DNA of 11,010 bases from a virus. Its lineage: Duplodnaviria > Heunggongvirae > Uroviricota > Caudoviricetes. Of the stretch, positions 483 to 11,010 are shown piece by piece. Numbering within the stretch: the first letter of the stretch is position 1; every line of letters begins with the position of its first letter. The position numbers and the translations under genes are program-made. The notes under the pieces were generated by a model. That model was not told the origin of the DNA, made no database searches, and was given only the letters and a program-made list of their open reading frames with translations. The stretch spans positions 1 through 11,010 of IMG/VR virus record IMGVR_UViG_2681813236_000014; one strand, given 5' to 3'.

Positions 483-534
483 AACCAAACGACTCGGGGT
501 GCCCTTCTGCGTGAAGGCTGAGAAATACCCGTAT
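483..534 (+). promoter_or_regulatory. 5' portion of the thiM TPP (THI-box) riboswitch, truncated by island insertion
   Basis: aaccaaacgactcggggtgcccttctgcgtgaaggctgagaaatacccgtat matches the start of the E. coli thiM leader/aptamer as recalled. The native continuation (CACCUGAUCUGGAUAAUGCCAGCG...) is absent; unrelated AT/GT-rich sequence follows from 535. Confidence 0.7.
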
Positions 535-535
535 T

Positions 536-722
536 TTCTCATTTAGTGTTTTTTGTGGTTCGGGGTTGCTTGTGGTTGTTTATGTATGTATTTGATAAAC
601 AATAAATTATCCTGTTTTCTTGTTTGTTGTTGTTCGTCGTTGTTCGTAGAGCTTCAACAAAATGTGTGGTCAGTTGTGTGGTCAGTTTTTTGAGGCTGGA
701 GGACTGAAAAGAGGATCTGATA
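536..722. repeat. att-proximal arm with short tandem direct repeats (TGTGTGGTCAGT x2 at 663-686; GTTGTTCGT x2 at ~628-646; TTGTGGTT x2 near 555-585)
   Basis: Seen directly. Lies between the insertion junction and the integrase start; this is the typical location of integrase arm-type or IHF sites and of the int promoter. Confidence 0.4.
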
Positions 723-1943
723 GTGGGAAAAGCACTAAACAAACTGAGCGATTCGACGTTAAAAAAATTGGCGGCTGTCCAGGCAGAAAAAGAGCGTTTT
801 TACTCCGACGGGGGCGGGCTGGAGATTAAACACTCAAAGGGCGGCAAATTAACCTGGTATTTCCGGTACCGAACGGGAGGCCGTGAGGTTGCCGCAGAGC
901 GGTTAAAGCTGGGGGCTTACCCTGAATTGTCGCTGAAAGCCGCAAGGGAAAAACGCACACTGTGCCGGGCATGGCTGGCTGAGGGTAAAAACCCCCGTTA
1001 TGAGTTGTGCGCCACAGTACAGGAAGCACTAAAACCCGTTACGGTGAAGGAAGCGATTAACTACTGGCTGGAGGAATACGCGAAGGATAACCGCAAAGAT
1101 TACATAAAGCTGGTGCAGCGTATGGATAAGCACATCATTTGCCATATTGGGGCAATTCCCCTTGATAAGTGTGATACAAGGCAGTGGATCGCATGTTTTG
1201 ACCGCGTACGAAAAAAAGCACCAGTAGCAGCGGGCCATGTCATGCAGACATGCAAACAGGCGCTAAAGTTTTGCCGCAGGCGGCGCTACGCGTTTAGCAA
1301 CGCCCTGGACGATTTGATCGTTACTGATGTGGGTAAGAGAGCAGAAATCCGCGAGAGAGTGCACAGCAACAGCGAACTAAAAGAAATTCTACGCGCTATT
1401 GATGGTGATGTGTTCGCTCCCTATTACAGTGCGTTAATGCGCTTGTTAATTGTGTTCGGGTGCAGAACGGCAGAGATCAGACTTTCAGAGATCAAAGAAT
1501 GGGACCTGAAAGAAATGTTGTGGACAGTGCCAAAAGAGCACAGCAAAACGAAGGTAACAATATTCCGACCTATTCCTGATGGTATTTTGCCGTTCATTCA
1601 GAAGCTGGTGGAGCAAAACGCACACACTGGGTTATTACTCGGCGAACTGAAAAAAGATACCACGGTGGCGCAATATGGACGAAATGCGCATAAGCGGCTT
1701 AAGCAGGAACACTGGACGCTGCATGATTTCCGACACACGTTTACAACTATGCTGAATGATTTAGGTGTCGATCCGCATATCGTGGAGCACATCACAGCGC
1801 ATCAGATGCCAGGTCAGCAAAAAACCTATAACCATTCACGCTATTTGCAGGCGAAACGGGACGCACTGAATCTATGGGTTGAGCGTCTTGATATGATTGC
1901 AGGATATAATGAAAATATTGTGATATTGAGAGGGATACAATGA
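723..1943 (+). CDS. int: Tyrosine recombinase, P4-type integrase (406 aa, GTG start)
   Basis: N-terminal arm-binding pattern (DGGGLEIKHSKGGKLTWYFRYR); catalytic-region motifs GCRTAEI, HDFRHT and a C-terminal Tyr (KTYNHS); RBS AAGAGGA 7 nt upstream; adjacent to the insertion junction. Confidence 0.9.
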   Translation: MGKALNKLSDSTLKKLAAVQAEKERFYSDGGGLEIKHSKGGKLTWYFRYRTGGREVAAERLKLGAYPELSLKAAREKRTLCRAWLAEGKNPRYELCATVQEALKPVTVKEAINYWLEEYAKDNRKDYIKLVQRMDKHIICHIGAIPLDKCDTRQWIACFDRVRKKAPVAAGHVMQTCKQALKFCRRRRYAFSNALDDLIVTDVGKRAEIRERVHSNSELKEILRAIDGDVFAPYYSALMRLLIVFGCRTAEIRLSEIKEWDLKEMLWTVPKEHSKTKVTIFRPIPDGILPFIQKLVEQNAHTGLLLGELKKDTTVAQYGRNAHKRLKQEHWTLHDFRHTFTTMLNDLGVDPHIVEHITAHQMPGQQKTYNHSRYLQAKRDALNLWVERLDMIAGYNENIVILRGIQ

Positions 1944-2794
1944 CGAAAAAAGTAAATAGTAAAAAAGATTTACCAAAGTCATTTGATTTAGGCAAATATG
2001 ATTGCCTAGAAAACTTGTCGGATAAAGATCTATTTCGCCAATTATATTGGCGACAAGATGATTTAACAATGAAACATTCTGAGATGCCTGAATATGGATT
2101 TATGTTTGGTGCTGAATACCCGTTGCATAATAATTACGGGGATCCATTTGGAGAGCTGAAAGAAGACGATTGGTTTTGTGATAAACAAAAAGAATATGAC
2201 CATAAAGTGCAACCGAAGTTAATTGAGCTAAGTTATGATGATGGAATTAAACCTGTAACAAGATTTGATATATCAATGATTAATAAACTGACTGCGGAAA
2301 GAGGATATTGGAAGGATAAACCAATCATCATAGATAATGAGATGGTTGGAAGTTTAATATCAGAAGATAATGGGATGTTTTGGGCTGTGATGCGTGAACC
2401 AGTGAATCTCCTTTCTGATACATTAGATAATATGCTTGTTTCTGTTGACTTACTACATAACAGAGATGATGAGTTGATTGAAGCGTTTACAAAACTATTA
2501 CCAAAATGGCGTAGTGAACTTTCAATTGTTGAGCCAGACAAACCAATTGCAGGAAGTTGGGAGAGCATACGACGTAAAATTATTGATTATAAGATAATCC
2601 CATTAATTGACTTATTATCTTGGGAGTTGTCTACAGATAGAAAAATTTCATTAGGGGTGCTTGCCGTATCTTTGTATCCTGATGGTGAAAAGGACACCTT
2701 TGCTATTGCTCAGACTGTAAAACCCTTCTTAGAAAAAATAATGCGCAGCGATTCTTTAGAAAAAATAAGAAAAATTTTATCTAATGAAAATTAA
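1940..2794 (+). CDS. Hypothetical protein, AT-rich cargo gene (284 aa), function unknown
   Basis: Long ORF with start overlapping the int stop (ATGA), RBS AGAGGGA. Markedly lower GC than flanking int and alpA. No motif I can assign. Confidence 0.7.
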   Translation: MTKKVNSKKDLPKSFDLGKYDCLENLSDKDLFRQLYWRQDDLTMKHSEMPEYGFMFGAEYPLHNNYGDPFGELKEDDWFCDKQKEYDHKVQPKLIELSYDDGIKPVTRFDISMINKLTAERGYWKDKPIIIDNEMVGSLISEDNGMFWAVMREPVNLLSDTLDNMLVSVDLLHNRDDELIEAFTKLLPKWRSELSIVEPDKPIAGSWESIRRKIIDYKIIPLIDLLSWELSTDRKISLGVLAVSLYPDGEKDTFAIAQTVKPFLEKIMRSDSLEKIRKILSNEN

Positions 2795-2897
2795 TCATGG
2801 AGAACGATAAATTAGAATAAAGTTTATTTTTCCAATATTGCACCAACTGCTATGGTAAATAAGATGCCCTTGTTCGGTTACGTTCGAGGGTGTTTTT

Positions 2898-3122
2898 ATG
2901 AATCAAAATACACAATTTCAATCACTAACAGATCGCGTAATTCGTGAGGATGAATGTCGTAAGTTAACAGGCGTCAGCCGTACTACACGCTACGAACTGG
3001 AGAAGAAAGGGGGCTTTCCGTCTCGCCGTAATCTTGGGGGGCGTTCTGTAGGCTGGTTGCTTTCCGAAGTTATGGACTGGGTGCAAAGCCGTGACCGCGT
3101 TAATTCAGGTAAGGCAGCGTAA
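2898..3122 (+). CDS. alpA: AlpA-family transcriptional regulator / excisionase-like (74 aa)
   Basis: HTH-containing small protein (LTGVSRTTRYELEKKGGFPSRRNLGGRSVGWLLSEVMDWVQS) typical of AlpA family; RBS GAGGG upstream; standard position after int in P4-like and PICI elements. Confidence 0.8.
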   Translation: MNQNTQFQSLTDRVIREDECRKLTGVSRTTRYELEKKGGFPSRRNLGGRSVGWLLSEVMDWVQSRDRVNSGKAA

Positions 3123-3140
3123 AGGGGAGCATATGACATA

Positions 3141-3168
3141 TAAAACAAAGGCGACCGGGGGCGGTCGC
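3141..3168 (-). terminator. Putative intrinsic terminator for the leftward regulator operon
   Basis: Perfect 8-bp GC-rich stem GGCGACCG/CGGTCGCC (3149-3156, 3161-3168) with 4-nt loop. On the minus strand it is followed by a U-rich run (complement of aaaacaaa, 3141-3148); no T-run on the plus strand. Confidence 0.5.
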
Positions 3169-3236
3169 CAATGGATACACACTAAACTTGAACGCATCGC
3201 CAACAATGCCACATTTGCGGCTGGTGGGCAATGTGA

Positions 3237-3416
3237 TCAGTCAGATTTGGTTCGTTCCAAGGTTTGCAACGAGAGCTTTTTCCTGTGCTCTTTAAGGAAT
3301 TTCTCAAGAGCAAACGAACAAGGTGCGAATCTTTCTGATTCATGTTCATGCGCTATATTTTTGCGTCGTCTCTTACGAGTTGGTGATGGTGTTTTGGTTG
3401 ATTCTGTGTCGCTCAT
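3237..3416 (-). CDS. Possible small basic protein (59 aa), below the ORF-track cutoff
   Basis: Manual translation of the minus strand gives MSDTESTKTPSPTRKRRRKNIAHEHESERFAPCSFALEKFLKEHRKKLSLQTLERTKSD with an AGGA RBS 6 nt upstream; sits between the RHH gene and the minus-strand terminator. Hand-derived, so coordinates could be off by a few nt. Confidence 0.3.
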   Translation of the reverse strand: MSDTESTKTPSPTRKRRRKNIAHEHESERFAPCSFALEKFLKEHRKKLSLQTLERTKSD

Positions 3417-3473
3417 GGTGCTGTCCTGTAAAGCAATGCGCCTGCGTTCCTCAAACTATGGCGCTGATAGTGG

Positions 3474-3779
3474 CTATTCCTGCTCTTTGACCTTGCGTCG
3501 CTGGAGTTCTTCACGCGCGACGGTGACGAGTTGCCCGATCTCCTCGGCGGCTTTGACTCCGATTTTTTCCACCTGCGCTAGGGCATCGAGCGAAGAAACC
3601 AGGAGGTTTTCTCCGCTTCCTTCTGCCTGGCGGCGGGCGATTTCACCGCGCATGGCGGTTACTATGAATCCGGCGTTGCTTTCACCGTCCAGTTTTACGG
3701 ATTCCATGCCTTCAATAACATCATGCGGGATCCGAGCTGTCAGTGATTGTGATTTTGCGTTTTTTGAACCTGTAGCCAT
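3474..3779 (-). CDS. Putative ribbon-helix-helix (CopG/Arc-like) DNA-binding regulator, 101 aa; candidate island repressor
   Basis: Strong RBS GAGAGGA 6 nt before the ATG at 3779 (the ORF-track start at 3794 is a TTG without RBS). N-terminus SLTARIPHDVIEGMESV fits a beta-strand/helix RHH pattern. Divergent from the pri operon across an operator-rich region. Confidence 0.6.
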   Translation of the reverse strand: MATGSKNAKSQSLTARIPHDVIEGMESVKLDGESNAGFIVTAMRGEIARRQAEGSGENLLVSSLDALAQVEKIGVKAAEEIGQLVTVAREELQRRKVKEQE

Positions 3780-3800
3780 CTGTAATCCTCTCAATGAAAG

Positions 3801-3877
3801 TGTAAGACAATATACACATAAAAAGTCTTACATAAAAGCATTGACATGTAAGCCACCTATAAATAAAGTTACTTACA
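3801..3877. promoter_or_regulatory. Divergent promoter/operator region: two TGTAAG-N19/20-CTTACA inverted-repeat operators plus rightward promoter (-35 TTGACA 3841-3846, -10 TAAAGT 3864-3869)
   Basis: Seen directly: TGTAAG at 3801-3806 and 3847-3852; CTTACA at 3827-3832 and 3872-3877. The second pair overlaps the promoter elements. Confidence 0.5.
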
Positions 3878-3975
3878 CCTTGTTAATGCAAGGTGCAGAA
3901 ACGACGAAACCCCGCACTGTAGGAGCAGTAACGGGGCTTCTAACCACCAACGATAGCAAGATTATCGAGGCAGCT

Positions 3976-4179
3976 ATGAGAAATCATACCATACACCCGC
4001 AAGGGCGGGACTCGTACAACCTGAATAAATACATCTGGCGTTTTATCGCCCTGAGCACCGCACAACCGCGCGTGATTCACATCGTGGCCACCAGCGAACA
4101 GGAAGCACGCCAGCAATCCCCGGCTGGCTGCGTGATGGTATTCGCCGCCCGTATTCGTCAGGGGGTGTGCCATGCCTGA
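3976..4179 (+). CDS. Small protein (67 aa), first gene of the rightward operon; possibly Icd-like cell-division-inhibitor family (weak recollection)
   Basis: First in-frame ATG after the promoter, RBS GAGG; MRNHTIHPQGRDSYNLNKYIWRFIALSTAQPRVIHIVATSEQEARQQSPAGCVMVFAARIRQGVCHA. The rest of the 362-aa ORF-track frame upstream is antisense to the RHH gene and not credible. Confidence 0.5.
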   Translation: MRNHTIHPQGRDSYNLNKYIWRFIALSTAQPRVIHIVATSEQEARQQSPAGCVMVFAARIRQGVCHA

Positions 4180-4492
4180 TATGTCAAATTACCAGTACCT
4201 GATTAATCCGCATTTTAACTGTGAGCATGATATTGCTAAAAAGATTTATTCCGCTGCGGATGGGGCTACTGACAATATATCAATGGCTGTTGCGTCAATT
4301 GGTAGCCTGATGTGGCATGCGTCAGAAAATGAGGACTATGACGAAAAGGCCATGCGCATTGATATGGGGAATATCGGTTTGTTACTGGCAATGCTTGGAC
4401 ATTTTGATATTTCGTTACGGTGCACCATTGAAAATGCCACAGATGCATTAAATGCTATAAAGAAAGCGAATACTGATTCAAATCGGGGATAA
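4172..4492 (+). CDS. Hypothetical protein (106 aa)
   Basis: Start overlaps the upstream stop (ATGCCTGA), RBS AGGGGG; in operon with the primase; no recognisable motif. Confidence 0.55.
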   Translation: MPDMSNYQYLINPHFNCEHDIAKKIYSAADGATDNISMAVASIGSLMWHASENEDYDEKAMRIDMGNIGLLLAMLGHFDISLRCTIENATDALNAIKKANTDSNRG

Positions 4493-4498
4493 ATAATC

Positions 4499-4798
4499 AT
4501 GAGAACGTATTTATCTGGCTTGACTGCCAGCGGTTATGCACACCCCCAAATTATCCCCGGCGCTATTTATCTGGATAAGAACGGTAACAGAGTAACGGTA
4601 AAAGAACTGATGTTTGACCGTGTGTATTTTATCCGTGATGGCTATTCATTTCTTAGTTCGCTGAACGTGGAGATCTTTATTAGCAGATTCAGGCGGGAAA
4701 TCCCGCTTTCCAGAAATAACCATGTGTCATGTATGGATGTTGATAAAAAACTACAGGAACTAAAAAACATGATTGCCGCGTGGAGAGAGCAGAAATGA
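4499..4798 (+). CDS. Hypothetical protein (99 aa)
   Basis: Stop overlaps the primase ATG at 4795 (ATGA), suggesting translational coupling; no recognisable motif. Confidence 0.55.
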   Translation: MRTYLSGLTASGYAHPQIIPGAIYLDKNGNRVTVKELMFDRVYFIRDGYSFLSSLNVEIFISRFRREIPLSRNNHVSCMDVDKKLQELKNMIAAWREQK

Positions 4799-6612
4799 AA
4801 AAAGCGCCAAATTTAAAACACCAGCCGCGTGACAAAATGACGGAAGTCATCATTTTTGCGGGTAGTGATGCGTGGGCACATGCGAAACAGTGGCAGGAAC
4901 AGGACGGGCGACTGGCTGGCGATAACGTGCCACCTGTCTGGCTTGGAGAGCAACAACTTGCCGAACTGGACAACCTGCAAATCGTACCGGACGGACGCTA
5001 TCGCGTGCGTCTCTATCAGGCGGGGTTATTGCGGCCGGGGCTTGTTAATACCATCGGGCAGAAACTGGCAGTGGCAGGTGTCAGGGATGCTGATTATTAC
5101 CCTGAAGGAATGCACAGCCAGAAACGGGAGAACTGGCGCGAATATCTGGAACGTGAACGGGCAGAGCAGGCGGAAAAGAAAAAGGTAGTTGAACTGCCTG
5201 TAAAGAAAAAAGAGCGGGTAAAAGACGATAACGCGTCATCACTGGCGCTTAACCAGATGGGAGCAAGTCAACGCGGCGAAGTTCTCCTGGCACATTATGG
5301 CGGTGAACTGGCGATTCATGCTGACTCTGACACTGTTCACCATTACAACGGCGTTGTATGGGAGCCAGTACAGGATAAAGAATTACAGCGAGCTATGGCA
5401 CAGATTTTCATTGATGCGGAGATCAGCTATTCGCAGAACGCCATTAAATCGGCGGTCGATACCATGAAGTTAAGTTTGCCTGTAATGGGGAATACAGCCC
5501 GTAACCTGATTGGATTCAGTAACGGGGTATTTGATACCAGAACAGGTAATTTTCGGGAGCATAACAAAAACGACTGGTTGTTAATTGCCAGTGAATTACC
5601 TTTCAGCCCACCAGCAGAGGGGGAAACGCTGGCAACACATGCGCCGAATTTCTGGAAGTGGTTACGCCGTTCGGTGGCTGAGAATGACCGCAAGGCGGAT
5701 CGCGTACTGGCTGCATTATTCATGGTGCTGGCGAACCGGTACGACTGGCAGTTATTCATTGAGGTAACAGGTCCAGGGGGAAGTGGTAAAAGCGTGATGG
5801 CGGAGATTTGCACCATGCTGGCGGGTAAGGCCAACACAGTATCGGCAAGCATGAAGGCGCTGGAAGATGCAAGGGAACGCGCGTTAGTGGTTGGCTTTTC
5901 GCTGATTATCATGCCGGATATGACCCGCTACGCTGGTGATGGGGCAGGGATTAAGGCTATTACAGGCGGTGACAAGGTGGCAATTGACCCGAAACACAAA
6001 GCCCCCTACTCAACGCGTATTCCGGCAGTAGTGCTGGCGGTTAACAATAACGCCATGTCATTCAGTGACCGCAGCGGGGGGATCTCACGTCGTCGGGTGA
6101 TATTCAATTTTTCGGAAGTTGTACCGGAGAACGAACGTGATCCAATGCTGGCGGAAAAAATAGAAGGTGAGCTGGCGGTAGTGATTCGCCATCTGCTTAC
6201 ACGGTTTGCTGACCAGGACGAAGCCAGACGCCTGTTATATGAGCAGCAGAAATCTGAAGAAGCACTGGCGATAAAGCGAGAGGGGGATTCGCTGGTGGAC
6301 TTCTGCGGCTATCTCATGGCGTCGGTAATGTGTGATGGCCTGTTAGTGGGTAATGCTGAAATTGTGCCATTCAGCCCACGCAGGTATCTCTATCATGCCT
6401 ATCTGGCTTATATGAGGGCACATGGGTTTGGTAAACCTGTAACACTGACGCGCTTCGGTAAAGATATGCCGGGGGCAATGGCGGAATATGGCAGGGAGTA
6501 TATGAAACGGAAAACGAAGCACGGTTTGCGTTCAAACGTGACACTGACGGAGGAATCAGAAGACTGGATGCCATCATGTGTATCGGTCACTAATGACGAT
6601 AGCAAAAATTAA
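4795..6612 (+). CDS. P4-family primase/helicase (replication initiator, pri-rep), ~605 aa
   Basis: Walker A GPGGSGKS (5769-5792) in the C-terminal helicase-like domain; large N-terminal domain; iteron origin immediately downstream. Start chosen at the ATG at 4795 (RBS GGAGAG, ATGA overlap) rather than the GTG at 4780. Confidence 0.88.
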   Translation: MKKAPNLKHQPRDKMTEVIIFAGSDAWAHAKQWQEQDGRLAGDNVPPVWLGEQQLAELDNLQIVPDGRYRVRLYQAGLLRPGLVNTIGQKLAVAGVRDADYYPEGMHSQKRENWREYLERERAEQAEKKKVVELPVKKKERVKDDNASSLALNQMGASQRGEVLLAHYGGELAIHADSDTVHHYNGVVWEPVQDKELQRAMAQIFIDAEISYSQNAIKSAVDTMKLSLPVMGNTARNLIGFSNGVFDTRTGNFREHNKNDWLLIASELPFSPPAEGETLATHAPNFWKWLRRSVAENDRKADRVLAALFMVLANRYDWQLFIEVTGPGGSGKSVMAEICTMLAGKANTVSASMKALEDARERALVVGFSLIIMPDMTRYAGDGAGIKAITGGDKVAIDPKHKAPYSTRIPAVVLAVNNNAMSFSDRSGGISRRRVIFNFSEVVPENERDPMLAEKIEGELAVVIRHLLTRFADQDEARRLLYEQQKSEEALAIKREGDSLVDFCGYLMASVMCDGLLVGNAEIVPFSPRRYLYHAYLAYMRAHGFGKPVTLTRFGKDMPGAMAEYGREYMKRKTKHGLRSNVTLTEESEDWMPSCVSVTNDDSKN

Positions 6613-6620
6613 ACTTATGG

Positions 6621-6850
6621 AATAACTGTTCACCACTGTTCACCCCGTCATAAATGTCTTTTATATCATTATATTATAGGGTGAACAGTTATTTATGAAC
6701 TGTTCACCAAACTATTCACTGTTCACCTTTTTGATTGTTTATTGAGCTGCAAGGGTGAACAGTGGTGAACAGTTGGTGAATAGTTTTTGTGAAACTGTTC
6801 ACCCCTTAACATTATGAATTGAAAGAGAAAATAGCAAAAGGTGAACACGT
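6621..6850. repeat. Iteron cluster / putative origin of replication
   Basis: About 10 copies of the 10-mer ACTGTTCACC in both orientations: direct at 6625, 6635, 6699, 6718, 6794; inverted GGTGAACAGT at 6680, 6754, 6764, plus degenerate copies at 6775 and 6840. An AT-rich stretch lies between them (6645-6679). Confidence 0.75.
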
Positions 6851-6955
6851 GAAGGGTTAAAATACAAAAATTTTATTACAGCATGGAATATTAAGTTTTA
6901 GCCGACAGGTAGTTAGCCATAAGAGGATATTTGTCGCTTAGTATTACGTACATAA

Positions 6956-6980
6956 CAGCAAACACTTTTCTGGTTTGCTG
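6956..6980 (-). terminator. Possible terminator hairpin downstream of the HEPN-like gene
   Basis: 8-bp stem CAGCAAAC/GTTTGCTG with 9-nt loop; flanking U-run on the minus strand is weak. Confidence 0.3.
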
Positions 6981-7003
6981 GATTAATAGATAAGCGCTAT
7001 AAG

Positions 7004-7717
7004 TTAGTTAGTTTTGAAAAATTTATTGAATAACTCTAAGCTTTCAGGATGTATATATTGAGTAGGGTAACTGATACGTTGTGAGCGTCCAATTTTTATT
7101 GTGTTTTTTTTCGTCTTCCCAAAAAATAGATTCTTCCATGTTAAAATGTTTCCGTGATTATATTTATTGTCTTTTAATCGCTTTTCCAAATAACCATCTG
7201 TGATTTTATATTTATGTGGCGGTACATTCCTTGAGTGCTCAATTTTCCGTAATTCTACTTCTAGCATATCTATTAGCTCACCTTTAGGGGTTTTGAGTTG
7301 ATAATTTAGTAAGCGGCAGTATCTGCGTAATTCCCATACAGTTCTATCTAATGTAATAATTTCAAACCCATTAGTATACATGACTTTTTGGAAGTATCTA
7401 TTTGGTCCTTGGTCATTTAGATACTCTATGAAATATATGCTTTTATCACTCAGATCTAGTTTAATATATGGAATATCATTAATTTTTTTAATTCCTGCAA
7501 CAAGATCATGTCCAATATTTTTAACAGGGATTCTATTAAAAATAAGAATGCATTTTATATATTTTTCAATTGCTTGTTGAGACATCCATAAAAATTGGAA
7601 AGGAAGATTGTTTTTAAAGCAAATACGAGCAGTTAGATAATCTTGATCAGCCATGTCTCTGAAAGATCTTTTAGCCGCATTATTCAGAAAAATTTTTTGA
7701 GTATCAGTAAGTTCCAT
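7004..7717 (-). CDS. AT-rich cargo protein with HEPN-like N-terminal domain (237 aa); candidate RNase-type defense/abortive-infection effector
   Basis: RBS AGGAAG; N-terminal helices with HEPN-like pattern (AAKRSFRDMADQDYLTARI...QQAIEKYIKCIL...NIGHDLVAGIKKI); roughly 30% GC by eye versus ~50% in flanks; opposite strand to surrounding island genes. Confidence 0.7.
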   Translation of the reverse strand: MELTDTQKIFLNNAAKRSFRDMADQDYLTARICFKNNLPFQFLWMSQQAIEKYIKCILIFNRIPVKNIGHDLVAGIKKINDIPYIKLDLSDKSIYFIEYLNDQGPNRYFQKVMYTNGFEIITLDRTVWELRRYCRLLNYQLKTPKGELIDMLEVELRKIEHSRNVPPHKYKITDGYLEKRLKDNKYNHGNILTWKNLFFGKTKKNTIKIGRSQRISYPTQYIHPESLELFNKFFKTN

Positions 7718-7863
7718 TCTCTTCCTGTGTCAGTGGTTGCAAGTGATTAGAAGATACAAGACATGATAAAGATTATAAATCGATTTTTATGGTAAAAATA
7801 TGTTTATTTACCACTTTTGTAGATCGATACTATGTATAGTTTAGTCAGTCAGAGGAAGTTGTT

Positions 7864-8073
7864 GTGAGTTGTATTAATGACCTGAACACAGGCGATATCA
7901 GAGGCGGTTCCGTTCATCTGGATGCGCAGACCGTTATGCGCCTTAAGCAGTACAGGATCGACCATATAAATCATCATCCTGACCAACCATTACCAGGTGT
8001 GGCGCAGATTGTCAGGCATGCCGTAAACGCCTGGCTTAATCAGAGTGGTTTTGCATCGGAGAGTGAGCAATGA
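7864..8073 (+). CDS. Hypothetical small protein (69 aa, GTG start) preceding the capsid gene
   Basis: RBS AGAGGAAG 5 nt before the GTG; stop overlaps the next ATG (ATGA); function not assignable. Confidence 0.5.
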   Translation: MSCINDLNTGDIRGGSVHLDAQTVMRLKQYRIDHINHHPDQPLPGVAQIVRHAVNAWLNQSGFASESEQ

Positions 8074-9983
8074 ATCACTGGTACACCATTAAGGCGGCGG
8101 ATGTTCGCGGAGCGGCGGATATATCTATCTATGAGGAGATTGGCGGCTTCGGTGTTACTGCAAAGCAGTTCGCGGAAGACCTGAAAGCCCTTGGCGATGT
8201 TTCACATATCAATCTGAGGATCCATTCACCAGGTGGTGATGTGTTTGAAGGCATCGCCATCTATAACCTGCTACGGAATCATCCGGCAGACATTACGGTT
8301 TATATCGATGGTGTTGCGGCTTCAATGGCTTCGGTTGTCGCAATGGCTGGCGATCGTGTTGTTATGCCGGAGAACGCCATGATGATGATCCATAAGCCGT
8401 GGGGTATCTCTGGCGGAAATGCTGGCGATATGCGTGATTATGCTGATTTGCTGGATAAGGTGGAAACCGTGTTAATCCCTGCTTATGCCAGAAAAACGGG
8501 CAAATCAGCACAGGAAATTACCGCCATGCTGGAGGATGAAACCTGGATGGATGGGAAAGAATGCCTTAAGCACGGTTTTGCTGATGAATTGTTGCCATCC
8601 GTCAGAGCAATGGCGCGAATTGAATCGAAACGCACAGGAGATTTTTTACATATGCCGGAAACCATTAAAGGAATGATTACACCGCCACAGGGAGCGGCAA
8701 ATATTGCTGGTAATGAACAGAAGCGCATCAATGGAATAAGTGAAGTGTTTAGCTTGTTCGGCAGTCGTTACGACGGGATCAAAATGGCGTGTCTGGAAGA
8801 TGCATCATGTACACCGGAAATGGCCCGTGAAAAGCTGTTGAACGAGCTGGGGCGCGAGTCCACGCCATCCAATAAAAATACCTCGCCTCATATCTATGCC
8901 GGAAACGGAAACATAACAGGTGATGCAATTCGTCAGGGGCTTTATTCCCGTCTTGGGTATGAACGCCCTGAACGAGGCAACCCTTACGCGATGATGAGCC
9001 TTTTTGAAATGGCCCAGGCATCACTGGTTGATCGTGGTATCACTGTGAGCGGTTTTATTAATCGCTCGCAGGTTGTTAATGCGGCTTTTACACACAGCAG
9101 CAGCGATTTTTCTCATATTCTGGCTGGTGGCGCTGAGAAATCAGTACTGAAAGGCTGGCAGGACAGCGGCGAAACGTTCCAGAAATGGACGCGTACCGGT
9201 TCGCTTTCAAACTTTCATGAAGCAAAGCGCGTTGGTCTGAATGGTTTTTCAAAGCTGGATAAAGTACCGGAAGGCGCGGAATATAAATACATCACCACTA
9301 GCGATAAAGGTGTACCTATTGCGCTGGCCACGTACGGGAATATTTTTTCCGTTACCCGTCAGGCCATTATCAACGATGACCTGACCCAGTTAACTACAAT
9401 CCCCATGGCGATGGGACGCGCAGCTGCCAGAACAGTTGGCAATCTGGTTTATCTCCTGTTAACCAGCAACGGCAAGTTTACGGATGGTAAAGCGTTATTC
9501 CATGCCGATCATAAAAATCTTATTGCGAAGGATATGGACATGGAGGGGCTTAACGAAGCCCGTAAGCTGATGCGCCTCCAGGAAGACGCTAACGGCGATT
9601 CGCTGAATATTACCCCCGCATTTGTCCTGGTCCCCGCCGCGCTGGAGTCTGCCGCACATCGCGCCATTCTGTCATCGTCATCACTCTTTCCGGTTGATGG
9701 CGTGGGCACTATCAATCAGAACCCCGGCATCATTAACGTGGTGAAAGATATGGCGGAGGTAATCGTTGAGCCACGTCTTGATAAAGCCAATAACAAGGAG
9801 TGGTATGTGGCAGCGGCGAAGGGTATGGACACGATAGAGGTCGCTTATCTTGATGGTATTGATACGCCATATCTTGAGGAGCAGGAGGGCTTTACTGTTG
9901 ATGGCGTCGCCTGGAAGGTGCGCATAGATGCAGGTGTCGCGGCCCTCGACTATCGCGGATTACTGAAATCGAGTGGAGCATGA
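8070..9983 (+). CDS. Prohead protease (ClpP/S14-like) fused to major capsid protein (637 aa)
   Basis: N-terminus has ClpP-like motifs (IHSPGGDV, GVAASMASVVAMAGD, MMIHKPWG). C-terminal ~400 aa resemble phage major head proteins (DGKALFHADHKN recalls Mu gpT-like DGKPFFAADHP). Strong RBS; intrinsic terminator immediately downstream. Confidence 0.85.
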   Translation: MNHWYTIKAADVRGAADISIYEEIGGFGVTAKQFAEDLKALGDVSHINLRIHSPGGDVFEGIAIYNLLRNHPADITVYIDGVAASMASVVAMAGDRVVMPENAMMMIHKPWGISGGNAGDMRDYADLLDKVETVLIPAYARKTGKSAQEITAMLEDETWMDGKECLKHGFADELLPSVRAMARIESKRTGDFLHMPETIKGMITPPQGAANIAGNEQKRINGISEVFSLFGSRYDGIKMACLEDASCTPEMAREKLLNELGRESTPSNKNTSPHIYAGNGNITGDAIRQGLYSRLGYERPERGNPYAMMSLFEMAQASLVDRGITVSGFINRSQVVNAAFTHSSSDFSHILAGGAEKSVLKGWQDSGETFQKWTRTGSLSNFHEAKRVGLNGFSKLDKVPEGAEYKYITTSDKGVPIALATYGNIFSVTRQAIINDDLTQLTTIPMAMGRAAARTVGNLVYLLLTSNGKFTDGKALFHADHKNLIAKDMDMEGLNEARKLMRLQEDANGDSLNITPAFVLVPAALESAAHRAILSSSSLFPVDGVGTINQNPGIINVVKDMAEVIVEPRLDKANNKEWYVAAAKGMDTIEVAYLDGIDTPYLEEQEGFTVDGVAWKVRIDAGVAALDYRGLLKSSGA

Positions 9984-9989
9984 CAACAA

Positions 9990-10013
9990 GGGCGGCGATA
10001 GCCGCCTTTTTTT
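9990..10013 (+). terminator. Rho-independent terminator after the capsid gene
   Basis: Stem GGCGGC/GCCGCC (9991-9996, 10001-10006), loop GATA, followed by T7 (10007-10013). Confidence 0.7.
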
Positions 10014-10061
10014 ACGGGTCCTCCCGGTGGGGTGGTCTGCCACGGGGCGGGAGCGGCGCGG
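10014..10061. other. Lambda-like cos site (cosQ/cosN-homologous segment); candidate 12-nt cohesive end GGGCGGGAGCGG at 10045-10056
   Basis: ACGGGTCCTCCCGGTG...ACGGGGCGGGAGCGGCGCGG aligns with the recalled lambda junction ACGGGTCCTTTCCGGTGATCCGACAGGTTACG|GGGCGGCGACCT|CGCGGG; the terS start lies ~196 bp downstream, as Nu1 does in lambda. Confidence 0.6.
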
Positions 10062-10240
10062 AAAAAGGCTAGTTTTTGCATTTTCATTCGTCATCATCAT
10101 CTTCATATTGTATTGAATTTTAAGCATTTTTATTTTTGGTATGTTAATTTTACTTGTTTTATGCTCAACATATAGCGCATTTTTTGACCTCTTCTGAAAG
10201 TTGTTCGCAAGATGCATGTTTAAAACATTCTGGAGCGGGT

Positions 10241-10726
10241 ATGGATCGAGAACTGAAAAATCTGATGCTGAACATTAATCAACTGGCGGCGATAGCGGGA
10301 ATATGTCGTCAGACTGCGGCGGCAAGGCTGAAAAACATCCAGCCAGCCGGAGGGCATGACAAGCTGAAACTCTATCGGGTGACTGACATTCTGACCTGTT
10401 TTCTTGATCTTCCCGTTCCGGCATCACTGGAAGAAATGGAGCCACATGACCGTAAGGCCTGGTATCAGTCCGAACGTGAACGCCTCAAGTTCGAACAGGA
10501 AACGGCGCAACTCATACCCGCCGATGATGTGCGAAAAGAGATGGCTATATGGGGGGAAATCGTAAGCGAGGAACTGGCAAAACTCCCCAATATTCTGGCA
10601 CGTGATGCCGGGCTTAAACCGATGGCAGTAAACAGAGTGCAGTCAATTATTGACGATTTGTGTAATCAGATTATCAGCCGGATGGTAAAAAATGACGTAG
10701 TGAATGAGGTCGCAAAACAGGCATGA
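10241..10726 (+). CDS. Small terminase subunit, Nu1-like (161 aa)
   Basis: RBS GGAG 7 nt before the ATG at 10241 (the ORF-track start at 10154 lies inside the cos region and lacks an RBS). N-terminal HTH (LNINQLAAIAGICRQTAAARLKN) and overall layout resemble lambda Nu1; immediately downstream of cos. Confidence 0.72.
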   Translation: MDRELKNLMLNINQLAAIAGICRQTAAARLKNIQPAGGHDKLKLYRVTDILTCFLDLPVPASLEEMEPHDRKAWYQSERERLKFEQETAQLIPADDVRKEMAIWGEIVSEELAKLPNILARDAGLKPMAVNRVQSIIDDLCNQIISRMVKNDVVNEVAKQA

Positions 10727-11010
10727 TAATGACCGAATCTGAAATACTGCGATTAATCCGCTGTGCTGGTGGAATCAGCCAGTTGGCTGACGAACAGGCC
10801 GCGCAGCCGGATACAGTCACCGCTGAAAATTACGCGCGTGTGGTGGCTGAGGTGATGCGCCGTGACGGTATTGAGCTTAACGGCGTGGATATGCGCAACA
10901 TACGAACCAGAGTTCTTGAGTTGCTGGCATACCGTCGCCGTTCTCAACAACGGAGGGAGAGCGCGAAAAATACTTACCAGTGGAGGAAGCCGGAGCACTT
11001 ACGGCGGTAA
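10723..11010 (+). CDS. Hypothetical protein (95 aa) downstream of terS
   Basis: Start overlaps the terS stop (ATGA); stop at the window end; no recognisable motif. Confidence 0.45.
   Translation: MIMTESEILRLIRCAGGISQLADEQAAQPDTVTAENYARVVAEVMRRDGIELNGVDMRNIRTRVLELLAYRRRSQQRRESAKNTYQWRKPEHLRR

Follow-up and report, generated by a model that had tools for sequence, protein, structure and literature searches.

Positions 483–722 of the 11,010-nucleotide stretch of DNA that was analysed (the window) are read here, with a probability of about 0.85, as the attL of an EcCI224-type phage-inducible chromosomal island (PICI) that has integrated into the aptamer of the thiM TPP riboswitch. The 'intergenic' site of this PICI is then the three-way junction of a textbook riboswitch, which is broken by integration without repair.

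The first 1000 positions of the window match 5415 of 5426 complete E. coli genomes in a megablast search. In K-12 and the other island-free genomes the match spans positions 1–534, at up to 100% identity, and ends there; PGAP annotates a 'riboswitch' beneath it in the island-free genomes. The shared leader runs to ...GCTGAGAAATACCCGTAT, after which K-12 continues with CACCTGATCTGG... and the window with TTTCTCATTTAG...; with a slash marking the break between 534 and 535, K-12 reads ...GGCTGAGAAATACCCGTAT/CACCTGATCTGG... and the window reads ...GGCTGAGAAATACCCGTAT/TTTCTCATTTAG.... As the same breakpoint is found against thousands of genomes and the inserted segment is flanked by a 14 bp direct repeat, this boundary is not due to chance. 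The initial annotation, which was made from the sequence alone, had described a thiM-leader match through 534 followed by unrelated DNA, and the island-free genomes, K-12 included, bear this out: they diverge from the window after 534 and do not continue as in 535–722. The features around the junction are the following.

121–393, + strand: rcnR, the upstream host gene in the left flank (Pfam Trns_repr_metal, E = 3.5e-21; annotated as rcnR in all matching genomes)
431–459, + strand: sigma-70-like promoter TTTACA-17-TACCAT, the candidate thiMD promoter, facing int through the half aptamer (consensus promoter scan)
485–534, + strand: 5' half of the thiM TPP aptamer, comprising the P1 5' strand, P2, P3 (the pyrimidine-sensor arm), J3-2, the P2 3' strand and J2-4 (Rfam RF00059 alignment; identical to K-12 up to the break)
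521–534, + strand: att core AGAAATACCCGTAT, the 14 bp identity block common to attL, attR and attB; of the two copies in the direct repeat, the window holds only this one, at attL, the second being at attR
521–539, no strand assigned: dyad AGAAA-N9-TTTCT across the core/arm boundary, a candidate pair of core-type integrase sites (dyad search)
535–722, + strand: island-side arm of attL (P' arm of attP) up to the int start codon, AT-rich and missing from island-free genomes, with the int ribosome-binding site GAGGA at 710–714
620–695, + strand: 76 nt block, found again in direct orientation close to the island's right end (23463–23537 in locus L003; local alignment)
723–1943, + strand: int, a tyrosine integrase of P4-like architecture, 406 amino acids (Pfam Arm-DNA-bind_3, 1.9e-17; Phage_integrase, 8.1e-17)

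The rcnR–thiM intergenic region lies directly downstream of rcnR in the window. According to the Rfam alignment, the core AGAAATACCCGTAT covers J3-2 (AGAA), the P2 3' strand (AUACCC) and J2-4 (GUAU). In the RNA these are the end of the conserved CUGAGA junction (J3-2), the P2 3' strand and the GUAU linker to P4, which together make up the three-way junction between the pyrimidine-sensor arm (P2–P3) and the pyrophosphate-sensor arm (P4–P5).

A second copy of the core is present at attR in the five lysogen loci examined (L001, L003, L011, L012 and L013). In the closest complete genome, NZ_CP085074 (locus L003), which is 99.3% identical to the window across all 11,010 bases, this copy occupies 23597–23610. 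The two copies are 11,076 nt apart there and thiM starts 82 nt past the second. The right junction of this locus reads ...ATAACAAAAATTAGTA/AGAAATACCCGTAT/CACCTGATCTGGATAATGCC... and is followed by the remaining thiM leader and thiM, and the comparison places the right end of the island (attR) about 600 nt beyond the end of the window. The 14 bp direct repeat brackets segments of 10.6–15.1 kb in the five lysogens, with a constant distance of 82 nt between attR and the thiM ATG. A non-tRNA attachment site in a riboswitch had been proposed at the outset, and it stands: in 5/5 lysogens the right junction falls within the thiM leader, at 82 nt before the ATG of thiM, and ARAGORN finds neither a tRNA, as had been noted, nor a tmRNA in the window. 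Joining attL to attR in silico regenerates the K-12 leader with no mismatches in the aptamer or the expression platform, and the sole two differences are SNPs inside thiM. The reconstructed attP junction has no exact match in viral contigs or metagenome contigs. An exact search of one-genome-per-species contigs with the attL junction GAGAAATACCCGTATTTTCT returned only MAGs from Poribacteria and Melioribacteraceae; these are unrelated and were not taken as island junctions.

The consequences for the aptamer were evaluated with the Rfam TPP model RF00059, which has a gathering score of 54.3 bits. The intact K-12 leader (attB) scores 71.2 bits, the attL half 20.6 bits and the attR half 33.3 bits. 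A split of the aptamer between its two sensor arms had been recognized initially, and indeed the window holds only the 5' half match, which covers the P1 5' strand, P2, P3, J3-2 and the P2 3' strand up to the break; a scan of the whole window at E ≤ 1 gives no TPP match. Thus divided, attL keeps the promoter region, the P1 5' strand, P2 and P3, and attR keeps the 14-base copy, P4, P5, the P1 3' strand and the expression platform. In the attR match P1, P2 and P3 are flagged as non-pairing, and the attR core is preceded by AT-rich island DNA with nothing that corresponds to the P1 5' strand, the P2 5' strand or P3. No TPP match reaches the gathering score in the two lysogen loci L001 and L003, and in the PGAP annotation both junctions of the five lysogens examined are without a riboswitch, as is the attL junction in the 60 genomes listed of the 76 that contain it. 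A complete P1–P5 TPP aptamer is found at neither attL nor attR. A block of 14 identical bp cannot make up for the part that is lost, so that a functional aptamer is lacking at both junctions. According to the initial annotation, the right junction must rebuild a functional leader if thiMD is to remain regulated. No such leader is rebuilt: only 14 bp are duplicated, the P1 5' strand, the P2 5' strand and P3 are missing at attR, the TPP score stays below threshold and no riboswitch is annotated by PGAP.

The arm between the break and int had been labelled repeat-rich, a description that fits. Two tandem exact 12-mers TGTGTGGTCAGT are located at 663–686, within the 76 nt block (two matches, compared with 0.04 expected by chance), and the block at 620–695 recurs at the other end of the island, 60–135 nt to the left of the attR core. 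It is kept at both ends in all lysogens examined, whatever their cargo. The 535–722 arm is conserved among E. coli lysogens and remains recognizable in the Salmonella relatives, which have the tandem at the same distance from int, unchanged in one of them and with TGTGAGGTCAGT twice in the other; it has been retained there although the flanks have diverged. Because the integrase possesses an arm-binding N-terminal domain, we interpret the 12-mers as sites of the arm type and the dyad as sites of the core type. The tandem TGTGTGGTCAGT units are probably the arm-type sites bound by this domain, and the AGAAA-N9-TTTCT dyad, which attL shares with the reconstructed attP and which attB does not have, is a candidate for the core-type integrase sites. 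With the repeated 76 nt block and 12-mers in both arms, a 14 bp core in common with attB and a dyad at this core, the predicted attP has the organization expected of such a site.

The integrase that follows the break, also seen initially, has both an arm-binding domain (PF13356, residues 8–94) and a catalytic domain (PF00589, residues 216–374). It is 96% identical to a cluster of 588 E. coli sequences, and no close relative is found among phage records, where the best match is 50.7% identical. The remainder of the island is made up as follows.

535–11010, + strand: island body, extending about 600 nt past the window to attR (comparison with L003)
1940–2794, + strand: DUF6387 gene between int and alpA, accessory (Pfam DUF6387, 3.3e-31)
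2898–3122, + strand: alpA-type regulator (Pfam Phage_AlpA, 4.8e-16)
4780–6612, + strand: D5-type primase/helicase, the PICI replication protein (Pfam D5_N, DUF5906, Pox_D5)
6606–6847, no strand assigned: iteron field ACTGTTCACC/GGTGAACAGT, at least nine copies in both orientations (repeat search)
7004–7717, − strand: HEPN-domain gene in a variable accessory slot (Pfam HEPN, 1.6e-4)
8070–9983, + strand: fusion of a ClpP-like prohead protease and a major capsid protein (Pfam Phage_capsid_4, 1.4e-53; CLP_protease, 1.8e-35)
10154–10726, + strand: DUF1441 protein of the packaging module (Pfam DUF1441, 2.2e-35)

The iteron field at 6606–6847 is the probable replication origin of the island. PADLOC gives no defence-family match for the DUF6387 and HEPN genes. 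A 362-residue open reading frame at 3091–4179 is probably spurious, as PGAP annotates small genes in its place, and the window's Rfam matches to MIR821, mir-4662 and ST7-OT4_3 are artefacts, of which the origin iterons account for the first two.

The order of int at the left followed by alpA, the primase and the iterons, with int, alpA and the primase all on the + strand, is that of the Gram-negative PICIs, for which both criteria and organization have been described (Fillol-Salom et al., 2018; PMC6092414). The element measures 11,076 nt in the closest genome and 10.6–15.1 kb in the five lysogens, which we count as agreeing with the PICI size of about 12–15 kb; at about 11 kb it is slightly under the nominal range, like the published EcCI224 (10.6 kb). 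A PICI is also expected to have a specific att site that prophages do not use. All elements at the 14 bp core are PICI-like among the lysogens examined, and an unrelated non-PICI island uses a different crossover in the same riboswitch. Two kinds of cargo accompany the int and att module, one of about 11 kb, as in the window, and one of 14.6–15.1 kb. The form of about 11 kb has no annotated tail, lysis, portal or large-terminase genes and carries the protease–capsid fusion. The 14.6–15.1 kb form, with the same int and att, has separate capsid, protease, portal, head–tail connector, HNH and terminase genes and resembles the capsid-forming PICIs.

Both the island and its exact core are already published as the PICI EcCI224, so that no new element is described here. 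EcCI224 was reported in E. coli Ecol_224 (CP018948.1, 1961620–1972242, 10.6 kb) with attC AGAAATACCCGTAT and flanks 'frmR-thiM' (Fillol-Salom et al., 2018, ISME J; PMC6092414, Table S1), and its attL and attR are given as 'rcnR_thiM.EcCI224' with the same capitalized core in the supplements of Tommasini et al. (2023; PMC10111431). Position 521 of the window maps to 1961620 of CP018948.1, and 92% of the window aligns to Ecol_224 at 99.3% identity. The two copies agree in locus, in core, in left coordinate and in the order int, DUF6387, alpA, primase, capsid fusion and DUF1441; they differ in the slot after the primase, where the window has the HEPN gene and Ecol_224 does not. Both papers (PMC6092414 and PMC10111431) list the site as intergenic (frmR-thiM and rcnR_thiM), and the word 'riboswitch' is absent from their main texts and from the 2023 supplements searched. 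Likewise, riboswitches are not among the attB classes of a 2025 paper (protein genes, tRNA/tmRNA, csRNA, ffs and intergenic). A full-text literature search, whose coverage is incomplete and which yields absence of evidence only, found no description of a riboswitch or thiM attachment site. Two points are unreported in the literature searched: the site is a riboswitch aptamer that is destroyed without repair, and a second island repairs the same aptamer.

Of the 5426 complete E. coli genomes, 5338 have an intact leader and 76 (1.4%) have the attL junction, the latter coming from humans, poultry, pigs, wildlife and water. The alleles of the flanking genes differ among the five lysogen loci examined, which suggests repeated acquisition. 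Two Salmonella integrases, 74% and 70% identical to that of the window, occupy the same exact position in the Salmonella thiM aptamer, in which the P3 loop is different and the core is identical. More distant integrase clades are found elsewhere: one at 67% identity at the IS061(mcaS)/smrA site and one from Citrobacter at 54% next to a yhdJ-like methylase gene. No integrase relatives were found in the one-genome-per-species contigs.

In a few genomes the leader is broken elsewhere, after ...GCCAGCGTAG. The integrase of this second family is unrelated to that of the window and contains the Phage_integrase domain only; 31 genomes have at least 80% of the second-family junction together with the 5' part of its int. 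In E. coli C (NZ_CP029371.1) the island is about 11.2 kb long and its cargo is annotated as SIR2, 'beta family', ImmA/IrrE, HigB and recombinase. PGAP places two TPP riboswitches here, one before int and one before thiM, which score 60.5 and 73.2 bits and are both above the Rfam threshold. Its attL and attR share an identity block of about 70 nt, from GACTCGGGG to GCGTAGG, and from this block it follows that the E. coli C island carries a replacement copy of most of the aptamer, like islands that target tRNA genes. Both this island and the window PICI use the thiM TPP aptamer as attB, and in both the thiM promoter and leader are immediately followed by int, which has the same orientation. The crossover of the E. 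coli C island is near ...GCCAGCGTAGG and the riboswitch is restored, whereas the window PICI destroys it. A difference at this locus in O157:H7 was considered as a further case of the window island and rejected, the riboswitch being intact there. The insert of about 2 kb between rcnR and the intact riboswitch shares the right end of the E. coli C island and, judged by this similarity, looks like a remnant of the second island family.

We now turn to the expression of int and thiMD. The TTTACA-17-TACCAT element at 431–459 is the only promoter-like site in 380–800 and consists of host sequence identical to K-12; we infer that it acts as a promoter. No terminator-like site is found in 380–800. 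With this element upstream and no terminator-like site before int, read-through from the thiM promoter into int, which had been suggested initially, is plausible, and int would be readable from a host promoter. On the other side of the island, thiMD keeps the pyrophosphate-sensor arm, the P1 3' strand and the expression platform, and lies 11–15 kb from its promoter. A crude consensus scan of the island's last 1 kb finds no sigma-70-like site, and the same segment contains one hairpin without a proper T tract; being AT-rich, it may provide a weak outward promoter. thiMD may thus be read only by leakage from the rightward operon of the island or from weak AT-rich promoters, and a promoter scan cannot tell 'silenced' from 'constitutive' thiMD.

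In the native leader, TPP stabilizes the aptamer including P1, upon which a stem forms that sequesters the RBS and AUG; without TPP an anti-sequestering stem exposes the RBS, and through Rho, TPP reduces the amount of the entire thiMD mRNA as well (PMC5499598). Since the aptamer cannot form at attR, the leader there is expected to be ON. Thermodynamic folds of the attR leader (ViennaRNA) with 14, 60, 120 or 250 nt of island sequence upstream all retain the GGGAAG/CUUCUU stem of the ligand-free native leader, and the predicted accessibility of the Shine–Dalgarno sequence is 0.26–0.53, which is not above the 0.54 of the ligand-free native leader. In each of the five lysogens the annotation shows thiM and thiD intact, and Ecol_224 and K-12 share one protein accession for ThiD. 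Intact thiMD neither proves nor excludes expression and is equally compatible with recent acquisition.

In the mechanism that we propose, the P4-like integrase would recombine attP with the 14 bp AGAAATACCCGTAT in the three-way junction of the aptamer, and the integrated island would cut thiMD off from its own promoter and from TPP. Any transcript that enters thiMD from the island would adopt the anti-sequestering (ON) fold and be translated regardless of TPP; as judged from the two junctions, thiMD would then not be TPP-regulated for as long as the island is integrated. Excision, expected upon induction by a helper phage as in other PICIs, would bring normal control of thiMD back.

For the destruction of the riboswitch, one alternative is that attP carries a replacement copy of the aptamer, so that the island restores the riboswitch and thiMD is still regulated by TPP when it is integrated. 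As a rule, integrases whose target lies within a gene provide such a replacement (PMC10111431), and the E. coli C island, with junctions of 60.5 and 73.2 bits and its identity block of about 70 nt, does exactly this at the same riboswitch. The window island has an identity block of 14 bp only, nothing resembling the P1 5' strand, the P2 5' strand or P3 upstream of its attR core (...ATAACAAAAATTAGTA), and an attR score of 33.3 bits against the required 54.3 bits, with non-pairing stems and no PGAP riboswitch. This alternative is very improbable, and on the compared sequences a restoring attP is refuted for the window island. It could also be argued that 535–722 is a degenerate remnant or ordinary intergenic DNA in which the repeats arose by chance, given that it is AT-rich and of low complexity and that short repeat families with two copies are frequently chance matches. 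We regard this as extremely improbable, as every lysogen examined has the 76 nt block again at the opposite end of the island, the count of tandem 12-mers far exceeds the chance expectation, the tandem is kept at an equal distance from int in Salmonella relatives with diverged flanks, and both arms are common to islands with different cargo (10.6–15.1 kb).

A reading of another kind accepts the broken riboswitch and takes integration as a selected regulatory switch ('regulated gene integrity' or active lysogeny), in which thiMD is turned off or made TPP-blind and reversible excision modulates thiamine metabolism or is tied to thiamine status. The aptamer is disrupted without a replacement sequence and precise excision is predicted to restore the leader exactly; the same site is used in E. 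coli and in the Salmonella relatives, the host thiM promoter faces int, and PICIs that disrupt prophage genes without replacement have been so interpreted (PMC10111431). This support is architectural. The junction occurs in only 1.4% of the genomes, and the truncated attL leader has no TPP pocket, so that the int transcript cannot sense TPP. It is simpler to assume that the site is merely conserved and is tolerated because thiamine is available in the gut, and we consider a selected switch improbable.

Should thiMD really be uncoupled from TPP as predicted, about 1.4% of the sequenced E. coli, together with some Salmonella, would be natural riboswitch knock-outs of the thiamine operon that are reversible by excision. 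They would offer a ready-made system for asking what the riboswitch is worth to its host, with the restoring E. coli C island as an internal control at the same locus, and satellites would be seen to exploit conserved RNA elements other than tRNA as landing sites across genera. Only tentatively, and with the odds leaning against it, can this be extended to a rewiring of thiamine metabolism by PICI carriage, in which integrated thiMD is silent or TPP-blind, the thiM promoter drives int and helper-induced excision restores riboswitch control, two unrelated integrases having each come to use the same aptamer, independently and with opposite strategies. Were it true, thiD would become limiting if thiMD were silent, and the cell would rely on thiamine from outside; this would also be the first described 'regulated integrity' that acts on a riboswitch instead of a coding gene.

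The window PICI can be compared with two groups of known elements. P4-family and other integrases that act at tRNA, tmRNA and structured RNA genes (for example at the ffs 4.5S RNA site; PMC12540744) are likewise tyrosine integrases with an N-terminal arm-binding domain, and their attB is likewise placed in a conserved structured RNA, at a site common across genera, here E. coli and Salmonella. The conserved riboswitch core would then serve as a landing site across genera in the way that tRNA genes do for other elements. In contrast to these systems, the target is the cis-regulatory leader of an mRNA and not a stable RNA gene, and the identity block is only 14 bp, without restoration. The elements of regulated gene integrity and active lysogeny, including helper-embedded PICIs in late genes of prophages (PMC7192596, PMC10111431), likewise disrupt their target, have no replacement in attP and restore the target by precise excision. 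They differ from the present case in that here a riboswitch and the link between a promoter and its operon are broken, and not a coding sequence.

The TPP aptamer of thiM also serves as attB for a second tyrosine-integrase island, which is found in E. coli C and is unrelated to the island of the window:

L021 (E. coli C, NZ_CP029371.1), 19962-31251: second island, about 11.2 kb
L020, 4001-4706: second island

The crossover of the E. coli C island lies near ...GCCAGCGTAGG in the thiM aptamer. The island brings with it a replacement copy of about 70 nt of the aptamer and as a consequence both junctions are complete TPP aptamers, with attL (60.5 bits) positioned immediately 5' of int and attR (73.2 bits) 5' of thiM. 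By annotation, the cargo consists of SIR2, ImmA/IrrE, HigB and a recombinase. The second-family junction together with the 5' part of int is present in 31 of the 5426 complete E. coli genomes searched (at least 80% of that sequence). In O157:H7 Z1813, an insert of about 2 kb (L004 4394-6666) separates rcnR from an intact thiM riboswitch. As the right end of this insert, with its 'HTH-like domain' gene and the stretch that immediately precedes the aptamer, is similar to that of the E. coli C island, the insert looks like a decayed remnant of the second island family.

In both Salmonella assemblies that carry relatives of the window integrase, rcnB directly precedes the thiM leader (L005 2168-2790 and L006 2145-2770), and no called rcnR or rcnA gene is present between the two. 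The P3 loop of the aptamer reads CTTTGTG in these assemblies and not CTGCGTG. The same variant is seen in E. coli SCU-123 (L013).

Other integrase clades are found at other sites. A sister clade from E. coli (67% identical) adjoins abgR (L007 2640-3000), and the small-RNA gene just before its site is probably mcaS (IsrA/IS061). Integrases of a 54%-identical clade, which occurs widely in Citrobacter, Klebsiella and Cronobacter, adjoin a yhdJ-like DNA methylase gene and are themselves followed by an AlpA gene (L009 1827-4224, Citrobacter); this neighbourhood holds a further PICI-type att site. The junction core in L007, AATATCGTGA, matches 'IS061_smrA.EcCIEC2733' (supplements of PMC10111431).

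Within the window, three further features were located:

1940-2794: DUF6387 gene, wedged between int and alpA
6606-6847: densely packed iteron field, ACTGTTCACC/GGTGAACAGT, with nine or more copies in both orientations, just 3' of the primase gene
7004-7717, minus strand: HEPN-domain gene, occupying a variable slot that follows the probable origin

The iteron field is probably the replication origin of the island, and it also gives rise to spurious Rfam matches to MIR821 and mir-4662. The DUF6387 and HEPN-domain genes are candidate accessory or anti-phage genes; neither matches any PADLOC model, and the reference EcCI224 locus lacks the HEPN-domain gene in this slot. A 362-amino-acid ORF at 3091-4179 is probably not a gene: for this stretch of near-identical genomes, PGAP instead calls a YlcI/YnfO-family gene on the minus strand and, on the plus strand, a small Icd-like gene.

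Two alternative right halves follow the shared int/att module and left half:

Window, 6613-11010: right half of the ~11 kb form
L001, 26929-34957, and L012, 26303-33959 (E. coli lysogens): right half of the ~15 kb form

The former encodes a protease-capsid fusion and DUF1441, whereas the latter contains separate capsid, protease, portal, connector, HNH and small and large terminase genes. That one int/att module carries both suggests that satellite types exchange modules at a single att site. In its gene set, the right half of the ~15 kb form resembles a capsid-forming PICI.
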